A stretch of DNA of 64,000 bases, from assembly GCA_942492885.1 (NCBI GenBank), contig OW818651.1, forward strand, positions 2,306,959 through 2,370,958. The letters run 5' to 3'. Shown piece after piece: positions 16,330 through 63,160 of this stretch. The notes under the pieces are model-generated. The model was given only the letters and a program-made list of their open reading frames with translations. It had not been told where the DNA came from and did not search any database. The stretch's first letter is position 1, and every line of letters starts with the position of its first letter. Source of the DNA: an uncultured Eubacteriales bacterium (GTDB taxonomy: Bacteria; Bacillota; Clostridia; Christensenellales; CAG-138). The position numbers were made by a program, and so were the translations under genes.

Positions 16330-16620
16330 ATCTTGTCCTGCGGAAAACGGGTAAAAAAATAGCCCTCCGCCCCGAAAAATAGGGACGAAAAGCACGAAAA
16401 TCCGGCTTTGCGCGGTACCACCCTGCTTGGCGAAAAAGCTCGCCCGCTCAAGAACCCCTTAACGCGGGGTAAACGTCGCGCGTTACTCGGCACTTAGCCT
16501 TTGGCGTGCGCGCTCACGGGTGATACCGAATGCTCCTGCCCGCCGCCGCCTTGCACCATACGCGGCTCGCTCTTGCGGACAATTGCGGAACACGGACTGT
16601 CCCGATCATCGCTGTAATAG
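16330..16620 (-). promoter_or_regulatory. T-box riboswitch leader (Ile) of ileS
   Basis: Minus strand contains the conserved T-box sequence GGGTGGTACCGCG (16423-16411). Stem-I elements are present: GATGA/AGT, AGAGCGAG, GGTGCAA. Candidate specifier ATC followed by A lies at 16524-16522. A GC-rich hairpin plus T7 run (about 16335-16375) precedes the RBS. Confidence 0.8.
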
Positions 16621-16653: not shown

Positions 16654-16954
16654 GAGCGCGCGGGGCGGAAGCATTGAATCTGAATTCTTTGATTGAAATC
16701 AACCAACTATTATACAAGTCCATAACACCAACTCATATACTCGGCAAGTCAGTGCCTTGGGGGGCAACTTATACGTTAAGTAACTAAAACATCTATTAAC
16801 TGAATTTCCACACCATGAGAACAACGATATCGTAAAGAGAGTGACGGACATTTGTCTTTTTTATCAGCACTTGGTTTGGCACATGACATATCACGAAGAA
16901 TTTCTCAAGAAATGGGGGTTATCGCGCTATTCATTATATTGTAAATTTGCCTTA

Positions 16955-18001
16955 TCATACGTTAGCTTTAACTTGAATTGGGTATACACTGTATCCATAT
17001 TTGTCAATTATATACGAAGATAAATTTTCCTGATCATTTCTATCGATAACAACAATCTGTGCTGCTCCATCACCTTGAGCACCCAGACCTTTTACACCTA
17101 ATGAAATCTCACTCACAACACTATCATTTATTAATTCGTGAAGCTTCGGGGATCTTAGATCTTCACAAAAAGGTGCAACATCAGCATCAAACATTATTTG
17201 CGCTTTTTTCATCAAAGCCCCTAAAAGATTAAGATTGCCTCTTTCTAGTGATGCCGTTGCATCATTAATAATTTCAATATTCTTTACTCCCAAAGCTTGA
17301 TACAATTTCAGATCATTTTCGTTCTTTGGAAAAGGATATGCTGCGTTTAAAGAATTTAGAATTTTCCTTGTATTTCTTTTCCCGTTCAAGTCAACAATAA
17401 TAATATACACGTCCTTTGGCAATTTGATTTCTTTATATTTTGTTGTTTCATCAAATTCGACACATATCAATTTTTTTCCTAGAGCGCATAATTGATCCAT
17501 ATGCCCACATTGCGATAACGCAAAATGCTCAGCATCATAAGCTATTTCCATTTCATCGCTGACACTAAGGTTTAAATCATATAACAAATTGTATGATCTT
17601 ATCACACTTACGCAAATTGCCGCACTGGATCCAAGGCCTATTTTAATCGGCAATGTTGTTTTGTAAGCATTCAGGTTTATACCTTTAACAGGATATCTTT
17701 TAAACATGATATAAGCTGATGCTATCGCGTAAGAAAAAAAACTTCTATTCTTCGCTTTTTGCACCAGATATTCCTCGATTAAAGGGAGGGAGATTTCGTG
17801 TTTTCGTGCAAAAGTATTAGATGAGAAAATGAGATTGTCACTTTTTTGAGCAATTGACGATATTCCATATTCTAATCCATAAATAATGGCTTTCCCAACA
17901 CTTAAATTACTATTTACTTTCCGATAATCAGCAGCCCAATCAGAATGCTCGCCGAATAAGCAAAGCCTTCCGGGTATAAAAACTTCTATTCCTGTTTTCA
18001 T
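16955..18001 (-). CDS. GHMP-family kinase (galactokinase-like N-terminal signature)
   Basis: PGRLCLFGEHSDWAADY (GalK-type GEHxDY), motif II LPIKIGLGSSAA, C-terminal GLGAQGDGAAQIV. 348 aa. Confidence 0.8.
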   Translation of the reverse strand: MKTGIEVFIPGRLCLFGEHSDWAADYRKVNSNLSVGKAIIYGLEYGISSIAQKSDNLIFSSNTFARKHEISLPLIEEYLVQKAKNRSFFSYAIASAYIMFKRYPVKGINLNAYKTTLPIKIGLGSSAAICVSVIRSYNLLYDLNLSVSDEMEIAYDAEHFALSQCGHMDQLCALGKKLICVEFDETTKYKEIKLPKDVYIIIVDLNGKRNTRKILNSLNAAYPFPKNENDLKLYQALGVKNIEIINDATASLERGNLNLLGALMKKAQIMFDADVAPFCEDLRSPKLHELINDSVVSEISLGVKGLGAQGDGAAQIVVIDRNDQENLSSYIIDKYGYSVYPIQVKANV

Positions 18002-18034
18002 TGGACTGTACTTGCCGCATTTTCATTTTTCATA

Positions 18035-18805
18035 TTACTCTTTACTCTTTTCCATGATTTCAGCAAAATCTAATGTGTTTTGGATCTTCAAAGTGATTTC
18101 TGGAGGAAAGATACCAAAATTCTGATCCCAGAAAAATGCCTTTAGCGAATCTATATGTCCAAATTCGCCTTTACTATCATAATATGCTTCTAAATTATCA
18201 ATCCAATTTACACATAATGTGCTAAACCTAATTGCATGATTCTTCAGAGGTGGTGTATAAGTTACCCACTTATTGTTTTCGTTATTCTTGAAATCAAGTT
18301 CTTCCAAAAGATATCCGAGGGAAGGAGTCATAAATACGCCAACCCAATCTGCAGTTTCATACCATGAAGCGACTTCGTCAATTGCCGAACCGACAAAGGT
18401 GTTCTTATATACTGAATACTCTCCAATGCTCGTTGCGCCCCTTATCGGAATATGACCACTAATTGATAATGGTATGATATGTGAACACAAGTCACTATGA
18501 GCAAGCAATATTTCAATTACTTTTGTTTTATGCTCCGCTAATTTTCTAAACATATCCTGTTTGTCGACAGATACATCGATGTTCAAATCTGAATAGATCA
18601 ATATTGAATCTGATATAACAATTACATGCGTATGCGTATAACAATTCCTGCGTATTGTATTGTTAAGGTAATCAATAATCATTTCAAGTTTTAAAATAGG
18701 ATTAGGTTCTCTGCGCCATATTCCCTGCCACCCTAAAATATCGAGAAAAGTTACAATGCCGTATTGCAAAGGTATACTTTGCTCTCTTCGATTGCGGTAG
18801 TTCAT
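18035..18805 (-). CDS. hypothetical protein with class-III-cyclase/GGDEF-like palm-domain motif pattern
   Basis: VTFLDILGW, then VIVISDSILIYS about 44 aa later, then IRGATSIGEY....VGSAIDEVASWYE. The order and spacing resemble FxDIxGFT ... GDxxm ... RIGxxxG....GxxVNxAxRxE of nucleotidyl cyclases. A C-terminal ~95 aa is unassigned. Confidence 0.45.
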   Translation of the reverse strand: MNYRNRREQSIPLQYGIVTFLDILGWQGIWRREPNPILKLEMIIDYLNNTIRRNCYTHTHVIVISDSILIYSDLNIDVSVDKQDMFRKLAEHKTKVIEILLAHSDLCSHIIPLSISGHIPIRGATSIGEYSVYKNTFVGSAIDEVASWYETADWVGVFMTPSLGYLLEELDFKNNENNKWVTYTPPLKNHAIRFSTLCVNWIDNLEAYYDSKGEFGHIDSLKAFFWDQNFGIFPPEITLKIQNTLDFAEIMEKSKE

Positions 18806-19767
18806 TAGAATACCTCTCTATCTAGGTATTTAATTATTGACGCTGCCCCTAAGGGCATGAACCTAGTATAAGTTTCATCTTTTTTAATTTCGTGAACGTT
18901 TTTAATGAAGAAAGGCTTGCTCTCATCATCATCTAAATCACTAAATAGATCTGATTCCGTTGTTGAATATGCTGTAATGCCAATTTCAAAATTAATTTTA
19001 TCTCTGACCAAACCTGTAATTGTTAAATTATTAAAACTATCTTCAATCGTGCCTAATTCTTCGTTCATTACGACTTTTACAGCATGATTTACATTGAAGA
19101 TACCGTTTATAAATGTATCGGGTGTAACGAAAGAAGCAATAGAAGTTTGAAATCCATAATCGCCATGTGCTGTCTTCTCGCCACGCTTTTGAAATAGTAT
19201 TTTATTATTTGCGATAAGAGTAATGTTTAATGACAGGGGGTTCGAATAAACTGAATCTTTAATATTGACAATGGAATTCGCCTTTTTTAGCATCTTGCGA
19301 AAAACATCCATCTCCTCATCAATAAACCAATTATTGTTTATCAGAGAAAAAATTGACATGTCGACTGACTCAATGTCAGCTTGATTCAAATACATAGCTT
19401 TTTGTTTTAACAATATCCCGAGGCGGTTTGCCACTTTACGACGCTCAAATGCTGATGAGAATTCTTCCAGCAACTCCGGATTCTTTCTCAGTCCATAATT
19501 AGATCCCAAAAAGGAAACATAATCGGTTGCGCACGTTTCAAGTACAAGTTCAGACTCTCCATTTCTTCTTGCCTTGATAAATTTTAGTAGAGCACCATTC
19601 CAAATGTTTTTCTGACCGGTTCTGATTAATAACTTCTCCCAGCCAATAATGTTAATTATCTTAAAAAATTCCATTTGGATATCGGTAGACTCCATAATTT
19701 GCCTATTGTTAATTTTAATATTAGAAATATTGGTGATGTCTAGCAGATCATAATATAGTTCATTCAT
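18805..19767 (-). CDS. hypothetical protein (first gene of the islet operon)
   Basis: ATG 19767 is preceded by AGGAG. The stop overlaps the next gene's start (TAATG). A C-terminal segment (FQKRGEKTAHGDYGF...GIFNVNHAVKVVMNEELG) only loosely resembles a Nudix fold, so no function is called. Confidence 0.6.
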   Translation of the reverse strand: MNELYYDLLDITNISNIKINNRQIMESTDIQMEFFKIINIIGWEKLLIRTGQKNIWNGALLKFIKARRNGESELVLETCATDYVSFLGSNYGLRKNPELLEEFSSAFERRKVANRLGILLKQKAMYLNQADIESVDMSIFSLINNNWFIDEEMDVFRKMLKKANSIVNIKDSVYSNPLSLNITLIANNKILFQKRGEKTAHGDYGFQTSIASFVTPDTFINGIFNVNHAVKVVMNEELGTIEDSFNNLTITGLVRDKINFEIGITAYSTTESDLFSDLDDDESKPFFIKNVHEIKKDETYTRFMPLGAASIIKYLDREVF

Positions 19768-20016
19768 ATGCAGTCTCCTACTCTTCAATGATATTAGGTT
19801 CAATGAAGCATATGAAATTATACCATCAAGAGTATGATAAATACCACATGAAATATGCTACGCGCGGGGCGGAAATGCGCTGCATAAGCGCGCCTTTATG
19901 CGTTTTTCTGCCGAAAACGCCAGTTTTGCCTTAACAGACGCGAAATTCTCTGATATAATCACTCATTACAAACAAAATAAGAAACCAGACAAAATTAGAA
20001 AACTAGGGATAACGCA

Positions 20017-58051: not shown

Positions 58052-58795
58052 ATGAATCAACCCCTTGTTATTACTGACGAATCTTATCAAATTGCCTGGG
58101 CAAAAGCTATAATCGAGTTGAAGAGAAATAATTGGGACATATGGAACTTGGTAGTTCAAATTAAGAATCCGACCCTAAATGACGATCGAATCACTGGCAT
58201 TTTGTGTGAGTTTGCTGGAACACACGGGTTAATTACTCCTGAACATGTAGAACATACGATTTTTCCAACTCGGTTGTATCGAAAATACCCTGAAAAGGCA
58301 TTGCTTTACAGAGCATATAAGAAGTATTTTACGCTGACGAGAAAAATGGATCACAGTGGGTGGGGCACATACTTTCAAAGTATGATTCATTATCCGACTG
58401 AAAATGGATACATTGATCAGTTGGGTAATATTATTGAGAAAATCAATGAAAGGCCAATTACATATAAAACTGCATATGTCATGCTAATACCTGAACCAGA
58501 GAGAGATCGTAATAAGATAATGGCAGCTCCGTGCCTGAACTATGTTGCCCTGCAACTTGAGAATGAAGAAGAAGCAAGGCACGGAAGACAAATAAGTTTA
58601 CTAGCAGTATATCGAAATCACGATTTTATGCATCGTGCATTTGGCAATTATCTTGGTCTATGTAGTCTCCTGAAATATATATGTGCGGAGACTGATTCTA
58701 CAATCGGTTGTATCACTTGTATCTCTTCGCATGCGTTTGTTGAGAATCAAAAAAACGAGCTAATAGCTATAGCAAGAGAGATTACCAGAGGATAA
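58052..58795 (+). CDS. thymidylate-synthase-fold (ThyA/dCMP-hydroxymethylase-like) enzyme
   Basis: YIDQLGNIIEKINERP aligns with ThyA HIDQITTVLNQLKNDP. MAAPCLNYVALQL aligns with LAPCHAFFQFYV (catalytic Cys). LLAVYRNHDFMHRAFGNYLGLCSLLKYICAE aligns with [30 protein letters not shown]. The N-terminal part is divergent. AGGAGGG RBS. Confidence 0.6.
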   Translation: MNQPLVITDESYQIAWAKAIIELKRNNWDIWNLVVQIKNPTLNDDRITGILCEFAGTHGLITPEHVEHTIFPTRLYRKYPEKALLYRAYKKYFTLTRKMDHSGWGTYFQSMIHYPTENGYIDQLGNIIEKINERPITYKTAYVMLIPEPERDRNKIMAAPCLNYVALQLENEEEARHGRQISLLAVYRNHDFMHRAFGNYLGLCSLLKYICAETDSTIGCITCISSHAFVENQKNELIAIAREITRG

Positions 58796-58796
58796 A

Positions 58797-59837
58797 ATGG
58801 AAAATTATACTTTAAGAGAATTAAAAATAGAGGTTACACATCGATGCCCGTTAGCTTGCGTTCATTGCTCCAGTAATGCTCATTCGGAAAACACAAGAGA
58901 AATGCCGTATGATAAGTGCCTTGAAATAATTCATAATGCACATCAAATGGGTGTTAAAGAAATTGCTTTTTCTGGTGGAGAGCCTTTATGTTGGAACGGA
59001 ATCGTAGAAGCTGTGAAGGTTGCACATGATATGGGCATCAAAACAGTGATGTACTCTTCGGGTAATGCAAATAATGCCAAAGCAATCTTTGAAGAACTAA
59101 CCAAAGCAGGATTACAAAAAATCGTGTTTAGCATATATTCGTGCGATGAGGCGGAGCACAATAAAATAACCCGAATTGCAGATAGCTTTCAAAATACTAT
59201 TAGTGCAATCGAATGCGTTAAGAACTTAGGAATACAGCCGGAAGTTCATTTTGTGGCATTAGCAAGTAACTATAAAAGCATAGAGAAGTTAGTGTACTAT
59301 CTTAAATCAATTGGAGTGGATCGTACAAGCATATTAAGATTTGTCCCGCAAGGTAGAGGAAGATTGATTCATAAGCAAGGAGTTATGACAAAGAAGCAAA
59401 GCCTTGAGTTGTCCCGAATGATAAAAAGACTTTGGGAGAAAGGATTCGACATTAGGACAGGTTCACCTTATAATGTTTTACTGATTAATGAAGAACCCAA
59501 ATGCATGGCAGCAAAAGATAGAATGATAATATCACCAGATTTGGATGTCTTTCCTTGCGATGCGTTTAAGCAAATTACAGCAGAGCAAATTACGACCCCA
59601 GTGAAGTTTTCAAACTTAGGCGAGGCTACACTACAAGAGTGCTGGGATAATTCATCTTACTTTCGAGAGGTACGGAAAGCTCTTAGCGAAATCACAGAAC
59701 CACCGTGCGTAAGCTGTGGAGCAAATAAAAAATGTCTTTCGGGCTGTCTGGCGCAAAAGTTTTTGGAGTATAATACACTATACAAGAATCCTGACCCTGC
59801 TTGTCTGCTTGGAGGAGATTGTGGTGGTATACAGTAA
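58797..59837 (+). CDS. radical SAM enzyme with C-terminal SPASM domain
   Basis: CPLACVHC (CX3CX2C). C-terminal CVSCGANKKCLSGC (CX2CX5CX3C) plus upstream Cys residues. Starts 1 nt after the stop of the previous gene. Confidence 0.85.
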   Translation: MENYTLRELKIEVTHRCPLACVHCSSNAHSENTREMPYDKCLEIIHNAHQMGVKEIAFSGGEPLCWNGIVEAVKVAHDMGIKTVMYSSGNANNAKAIFEELTKAGLQKIVFSIYSCDEAEHNKITRIADSFQNTISAIECVKNLGIQPEVHFVALASNYKSIEKLVYYLKSIGVDRTSILRFVPQGRGRLIHKQGVMTKKQSLELSRMIKRLWEKGFDIRTGSPYNVLLINEEPKCMAAKDRMIISPDLDVFPCDAFKQITAEQITTPVKFSNLGEATLQECWDNSSYFREVRKALSEITEPPCVSCGANKKCLSGCLAQKFLEYNTLYKNPDPACLLGGDCGGIQ

Positions 59838-61017
59838 AACAGCTTTCTTCAACGATTTTACATCTTCAGTGCAGAGGTGTAATCTTTGCGAAAGAATGTG
59901 TGATAGAAAAAAAGTATTATCTTCAGTTAATGGCAACATTAATTCTAAAGTCATGTTCATTGCAGAAGCTCCTGGACGGTTAGGCGCGGAATGCACAGGA
60001 ATACCATTGTATGGAGACAGAACTGGCGAGAATTTCGAAACGCTACTTGCCAATATAGGATGGAGCAGAGATGATGTCTTCATAACCAACGCAATCTTGT
60101 GTAATCCGCAAGATGAAGATGGAAATAATGCAACACCAACTGCCAAGGAAATATCAAATTGTAGCTATTTTCTATCGATGACGATCGAACTTATTAATCC
60201 CGAAATCGTTGTTACTTTGGGTATCAAAGCACTTGAAGCTATTAAGTATATCGATCAGCACGACTATACTTTACGGGAAAGCGTTGCAAGCTTGCAGCCT
60301 TGGAACAAGAGATTCCTATACCCTTTATACCATATGAGTCCCCGTGCAGCTATTCATAGGTCAATGATTCAACAACGTGCTGATTTCATTAAGTTGTCGC
60401 ATGCTGTATCACCCACCGAAGGTATCAAGAAGAAAGCAACCTCAACACCCAAACGGAGTGCAAGCCTAAATACAAATGTACGATTATTAGATATGATAGC
60501 AACTATTGTTGCGGAAGCGAAATTAGTTTCCTTTTTTAAGCTTACTAAGCTGCTTTATCTAATTGATCTTAAATATTTACAGCAATTTGGAGAGTCAATT
60601 TCTGGTGGTATTTATTTAAGAATGCAGGAAGGTCCGTGGATTCCATCTTTAAAGAATATTATCAATGATTATAATCATGAGTTGTTTGAGCTGAATTTTG
60701 TTGCAAGAAAACCGATTCTTTGCACAATAGATAATTTCTATGAAACAGGTCTGAGCGAAGTTGAAAGCGAATTTATTCTGGATATAGTTAGAACGTATTC
60801 AACAGTTGACGACGCAGGAATGAAGCTTGTTGTTTATCATACGAAACCAATGAAATATATTCTAAATGCTGAGAGAGAACGTCGGAACATGTTGAAAACC
60901 CCAGTTCTATATAAAAACTGTACTGTGATTGACATTGATCAGAGAAACAATAATACGAGCGTTGCACCCCCCACTCCACGACCCGTAGACCCCACCACCA
61001 CCTCCACTGATGTATAA
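59821..61017 (+). CDS. family-4-UDG-like domain fused to Panacea/DUF4065 domain
   Basis: N-terminal half: CNLCERMC, MFIAEAPG (GEAPG-type motif A), FITNAILCNP, YHMSPRA (HPS-type motif B). C-terminal half: FFKLTKLLYLIDLKYLQQFGESISGGIYLRMQEGPWIP is typical of DUF4065/SocA-like. GTG start 59821 follows GGAGG (59811-59815) and overlaps the upstream stop by 17 nt. The last 17 codons lie in the 85-bp repeat. Confidence 0.6.
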   Translation: MVVYSKTAFFNDFTSSVQRCNLCERMCDRKKVLSSVNGNINSKVMFIAEAPGRLGAECTGIPLYGDRTGENFETLLANIGWSRDDVFITNAILCNPQDEDGNNATPTAKEISNCSYFLSMTIELINPEIVVTLGIKALEAIKYIDQHDYTLRESVASLQPWNKRFLYPLYHMSPRAAIHRSMIQQRADFIKLSHAVSPTEGIKKKATSTPKRSASLNTNVRLLDMIATIVAEAKLVSFFKLTKLLYLIDLKYLQQFGESISGGIYLRMQEGPWIPSLKNIINDYNHELFELNFVARKPILCTIDNFYETGLSEVESEFILDIVRTYSTVDDAGMKLVVYHTKPMKYILNAERERRNMLKTPVLYKNCTVIDIDQRNNNTSVAPPTPRPVDPTTTSTDV

Positions 61018-62910: not shown

Positions 62911-63160
62911 GAAGATACTCCGACAGGAGAAAAACAATCCGGCAACATTATATTGAACGGTAAGAAGGCACGCGAGAATGCGTGTCTTTTTGCTTGCCGC
63001 AAAGCGCAGGGGCGCGCAACACATCCGCCGGAAAGCGTTGACGCGCGGGGCTGAATAATAATACAATGATATCTGCTGAAAGCCGCGGAAAAGGCGGATT
63101 GCAGCGCGGATTGAAAACGAAAAGTGAGCGCGCGTGCGCCCTGAAACAAGGAGAAACCGG

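Follow-up and report, generated by a model that had tools for sequence, protein, structure and literature searches.

Pycsar, CBASS and Panoptes share a pattern in which a nucleotide synthase is coupled to an output module. Pycsar loci are small operons, often situated in defence islands, in which a class III-type cyclase fold is accompanied by a second gene. Panoptes is a rare and patchily distributed two-gene operon of OptE and OptS, the latter (an mCpol) being a minimal stand-alone palm enzyme with two aspartates, and in KpOptS these catalytic residues are Asp6 and Asp57 (PMC12657218). Here we describe an AT-rich islet in a window of 64,000 nucleotides from an uncultured Eubacteriales bacterium (assembly GCA_942492885.1, contig OW818651.1, positions 2,306,959 to 2,370,958 of the forward strand). 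Three minus-strand genes of the islet encode, in order, a NUDT22-like protein of Nudix fold (gene 1), a protein with the fold of class III nucleotidyl cyclases (gene 2) and a galactokinase-type sugar kinase of the GHMP family (gene 3). In a preceding sequence-only reading the three genes had been proposed as one system. As revealed by our comparison of gene 2-family loci, the recurring unit consists instead of two genes, a variable upstream partner translationally coupled to a cyclase-like gene.

The gene 2 family shares with Pycsar the small operon, the frequent location in defence islands and the combination of a second gene with a class III-type cyclase fold. It differs from Pycsar in that neither gene 2 nor its partners are matched by a Pycsar model of PADLOC, that the partners contain no cyclic-nucleotide-binding (cNMP), transmembrane or TIR domain (Pfam, PADLOC), and that translational coupling links the enzyme to a partner encoded upstream of it. 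With Panoptes it has in common the minimal stand-alone palm enzyme with two aspartates, the rarity, the patchy spread and the two-gene operon; the putative catalytic pair of gene 2 (D22 and D66) is, like that of KpOptS, separated by about 45-50 residues. Where Panoptes has a 2TM-beta or CARF-TM effector, the gene 2 family has soluble partners of NUDT22-like or PF21648-like type, and no Cas10, GGDEF or OptS structure was among the top 50 PDB matches of gene 2. On one of two readings, the gene 2 cassettes would follow the synthase and output pattern of Pycsar, CBASS and Panoptes, but with partners that lack a known sensor or killing domain and stand upstream of the enzyme.

Gene 2 encodes a cyclase-fold protein of an undescribed family

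The gene 2 protein carries the motifs FLDILGW (residues 20-26), ISDS (64-67), RGATSIG (122-128) and VGSAIDEVASWYE (138-150), and D22 precedes D66 by 44 residues. The order and spacing of three palm-domain motifs noticed in the sequence were thereby confirmed, and the motifs sit at the expected places in the modelled secondary structure. No match to gene 2 was obtained in Pfam (E <= 1), PADLOC v2.0.0 (E <= 1), NCBIfam, PHROGs or the sequences of the PDB (phmmer and profile searches), and none of 50,697 phage records encoded a relative. A search of 5.8 billion proteins returned only 19 clusters of relatives, which have in common FLDILGWKGIW, ISDT, RGAxxxG and GPAIDEVASWYE.

An AlphaFold2 model of gene 2, computed from the family alignment, reached a pLDDT of 88.2 and a pTM of 0.88. 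In a Foldseek comparison of this model with the PDB, every one of the top 50 matches was a class III adenylyl or guanylyl cyclase (E 3e-6 to 5e-5), with TM-scores mostly of 0.45-0.61 for single-domain targets when normalised to the target and of 0.35-0.47 when normalised to the query. In BFVD, the top entry is named 'Response regulator' and the next two are guanylate-cyclase-domain proteins. Class III cyclases (PF00211) are the best structural match in both databases, so that palm similarity was found in each, and they show the same order of secondary-structure elements as gene 2. The likeness extends to an acidic residue that ends strand 1 (FLDILGW), another in the hairpin between strands 2 and 3 (ISDS/T), and an R-G-x4-G strand followed by a G-x-x-[IV]-[polar]-x-x-A helix motif. 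D22 lies at the end of the modelled strand of residues 14-23, and S65-D66 lie between the strands 59-64 and 67-73, positions that we take to be the two metal-binding Asp sites of class III cyclases, as assigned by place in the model.

The putative catalytic residues are almost invariant among 48 members of the family. D22, G25, W26, G28, S65 and D66 are kept in all 46 members that cover those columns; G123, D143, E144, W148 and E150 are present in 48 of 48 members, and R122, K188 and S147 each in 47 of 48. Further conserved residues are A124, G139 and A141, and R122 is a putative triphosphate-type arginine. Given this near-total conservation together with the fold, gene 2 is very probably an active palm enzyme that binds nucleoside triphosphate (NTP).

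True class III cyclases stabilise the transition state with an Asn/Arg pair on the helix that follows strand 5. The segment G139-S-A-I-D143-E-V-A-S147 of gene 2 has D143 and S147 in place of this pair, in a register inferred from the motif. When Pfam was run on the gene 2 family, one of 19 members matched PF00211 at a sub-threshold E-value of 0.016, and the gathering score of PF00211 was not reached by any of the 19 members tested. The protein also differs from class III cyclases by the moderate TM-scores and by an extra helical region of about 90 residues at its C-terminus. Thus, the cyclase-like assignment held at the level of the fold and not at the level of profiles or of the transition-state pair, and gene 2, being below the Pfam threshold and without the Asn/Arg pair, is not filed here as a class III cyclase.

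The recurring unit is a two-gene cassette

The gene 2 family was found in 52 unique loci, of which 44 came from species-representative genomes, 4 from viral-catalogue contigs and the others from metagenome contigs. A gene 3-like kinase was encoded in none of these 52 loci. The three-gene architecture is therefore not conserved, and the coupling of a cyclase to a GHMP kinase is a single occurrence and should not be treated as the architecture of a system. A protein of PF21648 ('M1E1E6-like') is encoded directly upstream of the gene 2 relative, overlapping it or within 3 nt of it, in 28 of the 52 loci. PF21648-like partners were recorded in L003, L005, L008, L010-L048 (28 loci), L065 and L066 (e.g., L016:7315-7971), and the same pair of genes is carried by two Bacillus plasmids, one of them that of Bacillus mycoides (NZ_CP020745.1, 107886-109197). 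PF21648 is known only from the crystal structure of a Vibrio integron-cassette protein with a novel fold (3FY6; PMC3548836). The PF21648-like partners of gene 2 relatives contain a conserved and unannotated His-rich N-terminal module, AHxLH...PKHHxYMIxNRG...EFYxHxHPxEDLL...AN.DP.D.T, which possibly forms a metal site or acts as a hydrolase. A domain shared between these partners and gene 1 was considered and rejected (hhalign probability 0.5%).

Outside the window, a gene 1-like partner was found only at L009, the locus that also holds the closest relative of gene 2 (43-47% identity). At L009 the gene 1-like gene is followed by the gene 2-like gene, and the next gene is convergent and unrelated; scans of metagenomes and viral contigs for further loci of this type returned only L009. 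Co-conservation of the trio is thus not borne out for the kinase, while the pair of genes 1 and 2 does recur at L009. In the roughly 19 loci that lack a PF21648-like gene, no conserved partner was recovered by all-against-all BLAST. The gene that follows the gene 2 homologue at L005 had been a candidate kinase and proved to encode a Schlafen/AlbA_2-HATPase_c_4 protein. Two relatives of gene 2 are fused to N-terminal extensions, namely TPR repeats in Fusobacterium vincentii (L045:7368-8702) and a helical domain in a Clostridiales metagenome-assembled genome (MAG; L051:6948-8624). These fusions suggest that protein-binding sensor modules can stand in for the separate upstream partner.

Gene 1 resembles NUDT22

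A word-based homology search with gene 1 returned only the query itself, and exhaustive phmmer searching gave 11 remote relatives, mostly of 440-1245 residues. No informative match was obtained in Pfam (including NUDIX), PADLOC, NCBIfam, PHROGs or the sequences of the PDB (phmmer and profile searches). The AlphaFold2 model of gene 1 (pLDDT 82.8) was matched by Foldseek to NUDT22 (5LOU, 5LOR, 5LF9 and 5R50; E = 1e-9 to 7.5e-9, TM 0.55-0.65) in an alignment that covers both domains with about 345 aligned columns, and ordinary Nudix hydrolases followed far behind. According to the model, gene 1 has the two-domain NUDT22 fold; the loose likeness of its C-terminal half to a Nudix fold, perceived in the sequence-only reading, was therefore borne out in a more specific form. 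NUDT22 hydrolyses UDP-glucose, the products being glucose-1-phosphate and UMP (PMC10101856).

Although the whole two-domain model aligns with human NUDT22, gene 1 differs from it in having no detectable sequence similarity, a degenerate Nudix box, a location in a bacterial islet and a coupling to a cyclase-fold protein. The consensus of the Nudix box is GX5EX7REUXEEXGU. The corresponding segment reads VVMNEELGT in gene 1 and QCMKDELGK in its L009 homologue, the first Glu being lost in both. The remote relatives keep a Nudix-type box xETxEExG, and one relative gave a weak Pfam NUDIX match (E = 0.005). For a bacterial protein, the NUDT22 fold is in itself unusual.

Among the distant and longer relatives of gene 1 are two proteins of 576 and 626 residues. 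In both cases the next gene overlaps and belongs to the inositol-monophosphatase family (DPLDGT motif; gene pairs at L062:734-2940 and L063:731-4041), and at L063 it also contains a Cupin_2 domain. Another relative, P0025 with 1245 residues, contains a Ser/Thr kinase domain that resembles Mokosh MkoA and PD-T4-6.

Gene 3 is a galactokinase-type sugar kinase

Gene 3 matched PF00288 with E = 8.7e-13 and 48.7 bits against a cutoff of 22.3, in agreement with its earlier recognition as a GHMP kinase of galactokinase type. Its motifs are GEHSDW, GLGSSAA, CGHMDQ and GLGAQGDG, of which the first three are the sugar-binding, phosphate-binding and catalytic-Asp motifs of the galactokinase type. Gene 3 has the GEHxDW, GLGSSAA and CGxMDQ motifs of the GalK-type kinases that work with a nucleotidyltransferase partner and is 41-47% identical to its best relatives in that family. 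In contrast to true galactokinases and mevalonate kinases, the protein gave only partial NCBIfam matches to the respective equivalogs, all far below the cutoffs (NF003006, 76.7 bits against 443; TIGR00131, 59.2 against 226.65), and PF10509 was likewise not reached (13.9 against 23.1).

More than 1194 homologues of gene 3 were found at 38-47% identity, and many of them are fused to an NTP_transferase domain (PF00483). Three homologue contexts were examined: one in which NTP_transferase is adjacent within a heptose/glycosyltransferase cluster, one beside a GH127 glycosidase and NTP_transferase, and one on a phage-like contig (L055:2571-5356, 43% identical) beside a TAGT-family DNA glucosyltransferase and a dUTPase. 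The phage-like context hints that this kinase subfamily also serves phage DNA glycosylation. The unannotated phage record MT836394.1 encodes a homologue as well. Based on PF00288, the motifs, and the relatives fused or adjacent to sugar-1-phosphate nucleotidyltransferases, gene 3 is predicted to be a sugar-1-kinase whose subfamily usually supplies nucleotide-sugar synthesis. Unlike most of its relatives, gene 3 has no NTP_transferase fused or adjacent to it in the islet, and no such gene lies in the window.

The islet is foreign DNA

All three open reading frames (ORFs) on the minus strand are intact. They are real genes and not chance reading frames, since homologues of each exist elsewhere and runs of 256-348 codons are not expected in DNA of 35% GC. 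The tight linkage read from the sequence was confirmed throughout: genes 1 and 2 meet at ...TTC TAATG AAC, a one-base overlap of stop and start preceded by GAGAGG, and 33 nt (18002-18034) separate genes 2 and 3. As judged from this junction, gene 1 is translationally coupled to gene 2. AGGAG lies 8 nt upstream of the ATG of gene 1, and an alternative TTG start at 19803 is less likely; the start of gene 3 has no clear Shine-Dalgarno sequence, unlike those of genes 1 and 2. The prediction placed no terminator between the islet genes, and gene 3 is probably co-transcribed with genes 1 and 2. Downstream of gene 3 an intrinsic terminator was likewise absent from the predictions, the fold there being no better than that of shuffled sequences. 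A consensus promoter scan upstream of gene 1 gave only a weak site (19816-19788).

The islet of about 3.2 kb occupies the intergenic region between the housekeeping genes ileS and argS and is horizontally acquired, foreign DNA. This was already suspected from the sequence and is evident from the base composition, which amounts to 33-35% GC with GC at third codon positions (GC3) of 0.26-0.33 in the islet and to 56-60% GC with GC3 of 0.78-0.81 in the flanking ileS, argS and serS genes. The three islet genes are nearly identical in composition. Two perfect copies of the 14-bp direct repeat CGCGCGGGGCGGAA coincide with the compositional boundaries, and these only flanking repeats found enclose all three genes. 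With up to one mismatch, CGCGCGGGGCGGAA occurs 3 times in the window where 0.17 occurrences would be expected. The repeat is probably an insertion scar or an att core, and no integrase is encoded in the islet. The islet would have been inserted from an AT-rich donor between ileS and argS, leaving the direct repeat, and the site before insertion would have read GCGCATTTCCGCCCCGCGCGCTCTTTACAAATCGC. The third copy of CGCGCGGGGCGGAA in the window, with one mismatch, lies at 63042-63055.

Neighbourhoods and spread of the gene 2 family

Frequent neighbours of the gene 2 family are genes of MADS, PARIS, restriction-modification (RM), CBASS, Septu-like and OLD type, as well as recombinases. One locus of the family has type I RM, an nSTAND NTPase and HigB nearby, another type I RM and CBASS, a third HD-CE/HATPase and AAA_13, and a fourth an integrase, HigB and Tn3. 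On the Bacillus plasmids the pair is accompanied by an ATPase with an HNH protein, an OLD-family nuclease and recombinases. Among the 135 nearest neighbours, the commonest PADLOC or Pfam matches were mad8, mad3, mad5, AriA, type I specificity subunits, AAA_21, DNA methylases and ResIII. The family is patchy and extends over one archaeal MAG and at least eight phyla, among them Verrucomicrobiota, Planctomycetota, Bacteroidota, Bacillota, Myxococcota, Fusobacteriota and Chloroflexota. Both the neighbourhoods and the patchy spread are suggestive of a mobile conflict gene.

Possible functions of the cassette

We tentatively favour the explanation that the islet carries a candidate conflict cassette, in which a palm enzyme uses NTP to make a product that its partner reads or removes, the kinase being an accessory or a passenger. 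This explanation unites the synthase and output pattern with the alternative of a toxic nucleotidyltransferase neutralised by its partner. The core of this cassette would be genes 1 and 2, as one variant of a series of cassettes with a variable upstream partner and a conserved cyclase-fold enzyme. The enzyme would bind NTP via a two-metal site (D22 and D66), the GW-x-G loop and R122/K188, and would form a nucleotide-derived product, such as a cyclic or linear nucleotide, or else NTP consumption itself would be the output. The upstream partner would in turn read or remove the product; gene 1 might hydrolyse it and so serve as an off-switch or antitoxin, or it might be an effector that cleaves a nucleoside-diphosphate-X such as UDP-hexose. 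Gene 3 would have arrived with the islet while remaining outside the conserved cassette. The cassettes occur on plasmids and next to RM, CBASS, MADS, PARIS and Septu-like genes, and are on this account reasonable candidates for a new two-gene anti-phage or toxin-antitoxin-type system. If the gene 2 family is enzymatically active, it would represent a branch of the cyclase/palm superfamily annotated by no Pfam, NCBIfam, PADLOC or PHROGs entry, and two new partner modules would come along with it, one of which (PF21648) has so far been a structural-genomics 'integron cassette protein' without known function.

A number of observations weigh against a conflict cassette. The islet in the window is flanked by aminoacyl-tRNA synthetase genes and not by a defence island, many of the 135 neighbours are housekeeping genes, and the neighbour counts stand without a matched control. 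As the sequence-only reading had anticipated, no known defence model matches the trio: PADLOC-DB 2.0.0 gave no match for the three window proteins or for five PF21648-like partners tested. Neither partner family contains a classical effector domain (transmembrane, nuclease or TIR) or a known nucleotide-sensor domain in Pfam or PADLOC. The gene 1-type cassette is known from two sequences only, and about 40% of the gene 2-family loci (about 20) lack a recognisable conserved partner. Moreover, the cyclase chemistry of gene 2 is uncertain with the transition-state pair absent, and so is the hydrolase activity of gene 1, whose Nudix box has lost its first Glu. As to novelty, literature searches on GHMP kinases with defence islands, on NUDT22 with phage and on PF21648/3FY6 brought up no earlier account of such a system.

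The same pair of genes can be read as a toxin-antitoxin-like module, which we regard as possible, if somewhat unlikely. Gene 2 would then be a nucleotidyltransferase that arrests growth by NTP depletion or by a toxic nucleotide, the upstream gene would be an antitoxin that binds the gene 2 protein or degrades its product, and the kinase would be unrelated cargo. Small alarmone hydrolases neutralise toxic alarmone synthetases by product degradation in just this manner, and it accords with such a role that one partner family has a hydrolase (Nudix) fold and the other the His-rich module AHxLH...HH...HxHPxED. Partner swapping is typical of toxin-antitoxin modules; here two unrelated partner families serve one conserved enzyme, the stop of the partner overlaps the start of the enzyme gene in nearly all paired loci, and HigB-type toxin-antitoxin genes, plasmid stabilisation genes and recombinases are found nearby. 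However, the partners, at 190-330 residues, are of large size for classical antitoxins, in many loci no partner is recognisable, and some relatives bear TPR or helical N-terminal extensions in place of one. A further possibility, an improbable one in our judgement, is that the islet is no functional unit at all but a decayed mobile-element fragment, in which a two-gene cassette lies next to a sugar kinase that is independent of it and stems from a phage or a polysaccharide cluster. The absence of the kinase beside all gene 2 relatives elsewhere speaks for it, as do the kinase homologues on a phage-like contig (with TAGT glucosyltransferase and dUTPase) and in a phage record, the missing Shine-Dalgarno sequence of gene 3 and the lack of an integrase in the islet, whereas the common strand, the short gap before gene 3 without a predicted terminator, the near-identical composition of the three genes and the sole flanking repeats enclosing them all argue for a unit.

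If the three genes do act together, they might form a nucleotide-sugar metabolic module, an explanation we consider unlikely. Gene 3 would phosphorylate C1 of a hexose or pentose, gene 1 would hydrolyse a nucleoside-diphosphate (NDP) sugar to nucleoside monophosphate and sugar-1-phosphate, and gene 2 would regulate the pathway or supply a nucleotidyl-transfer chemistry that replaces NTP_transferase, in the service of niche-specific sugar salvage or homeostasis and not of immunity. Such a module would agree with the fusion or adjacency of the gene 3 family to PF00483 and its location by GH127 and in a heptose/glycosyltransferase cluster, with the UDP-glucose/galactose hydrolase that is the best fold match of gene 1, with the inositol-monophosphatase-family genes that overlap distant gene 1 relatives (with Cupin_2 at L063), and with the one foreign composition and one strand of all three genes. 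Against it speak the 52 loci, in which neither the kinase nor an NTP_transferase recurs beside the gene 2 family, and L009, where genes 1 and 2 recur without the kinase; it also leaves unexplained that the gene 2 family resides mostly in defence or mobile-element contexts. We know of no palm-domain sugar-1-phosphate nucleotidyltransferase, which likewise counts against the module. The initial opinion that ordinary sugar metabolism is unlikely holds as far as the islet has no transporter, glycosyltransferase or glycosidase, and is weakened by the ties of the gene 3 family to sugar-1-phosphate nucleotidyltransferases in the loci examined. Immunity and sugar chemistry would be combined if the trio were an immune or conflict module aimed at nucleotide-sugars, which we consider very improbable. 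Upon infection, the cyclase-fold enzyme would activate the NUDT22-like protein or be held in check by it; the NUDT22-like protein would destroy UDP-hexose and the GalK-type kinase would trap the free hexose as hexose-1-phosphate, so that phage DNA glycosylation or envelope synthesis would be starved of NDP-sugar or an NTP-burning futile cycle would arise. Should this be the case, a new family of nucleotide-based defence systems with PF21648-like and NUDT22-like partner modules would be at hand.

Features of the locus and its surroundings

The coordinates of the islet genes, their probable expression signals and the islet boundaries are collected in the table below.

Table 1. Islet genes, expression signals and boundary elements, in positions of the 64,000-nucleotide window.
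Feature	Position	Strand	Remarks
Gene 1	18805-19767	minus	320 residues from the ATG at 19767; two-domain NUDT22-like Nudix-fold protein (model)
Gene 2	18035-18805	minus	256 residues; class III nucleotidyl-cyclase fold (model), undescribed family
Gene 3	16955-18001	minus	348 residues; predicted GalK-type GHMP sugar-1-kinase
Shine-Dalgarno of gene 1, AGGAG	19779-19775	minus	read from sequence
Extended -10 of the operon, TGgTATAAT	19825-19817	minus	read from sequence; probable expression signal
Probable expression region of the operon	19775-19830	minus	extended -10 and Shine-Dalgarno
Left 14-bp direct repeat, CGCGCGGGGCGGAA	16657-16670		islet boundary; perfect copy
Right 14-bp direct repeat, CGCGCGGGGCGGAA	19861-19874		islet boundary; argS promoter region then follows
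Promoter-like site for the ileS leader, TTTACA-17-TATACT	16653-16625	minus	abuts the left repeat

Downstream of gene 3 and still within the islet, an ORF of 50 codons (16699-16851, minus strand) has a hydrophobic N-terminus, MSVTLFTISLFSW..., and may be due to chance in AT-rich DNA. An Rfam scan of 12-24 kb of the window returned no RNA family and no T-box at the gathering score. Just upstream of the start of ileS, a terminator-like hairpin with a T-run (16362-16393, minus strand) is consistent with a leader attenuator.

A second foreign islet is located on the plus strand of the window (58052-61017; 38-39% GC, GC3 0.33-0.35). It holds a 247-residue protein of no assignment with a weak PHROG match of thymidylate-synthase-like type, a radical SAM/SPASM protein, and a third protein in which a uracil-DNA-glycosylase-superfamily domain is fused to a SocA/Panacea antitoxin domain. 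Judged by these domains, the second islet looks like another DNA-modification or conflict cassette.

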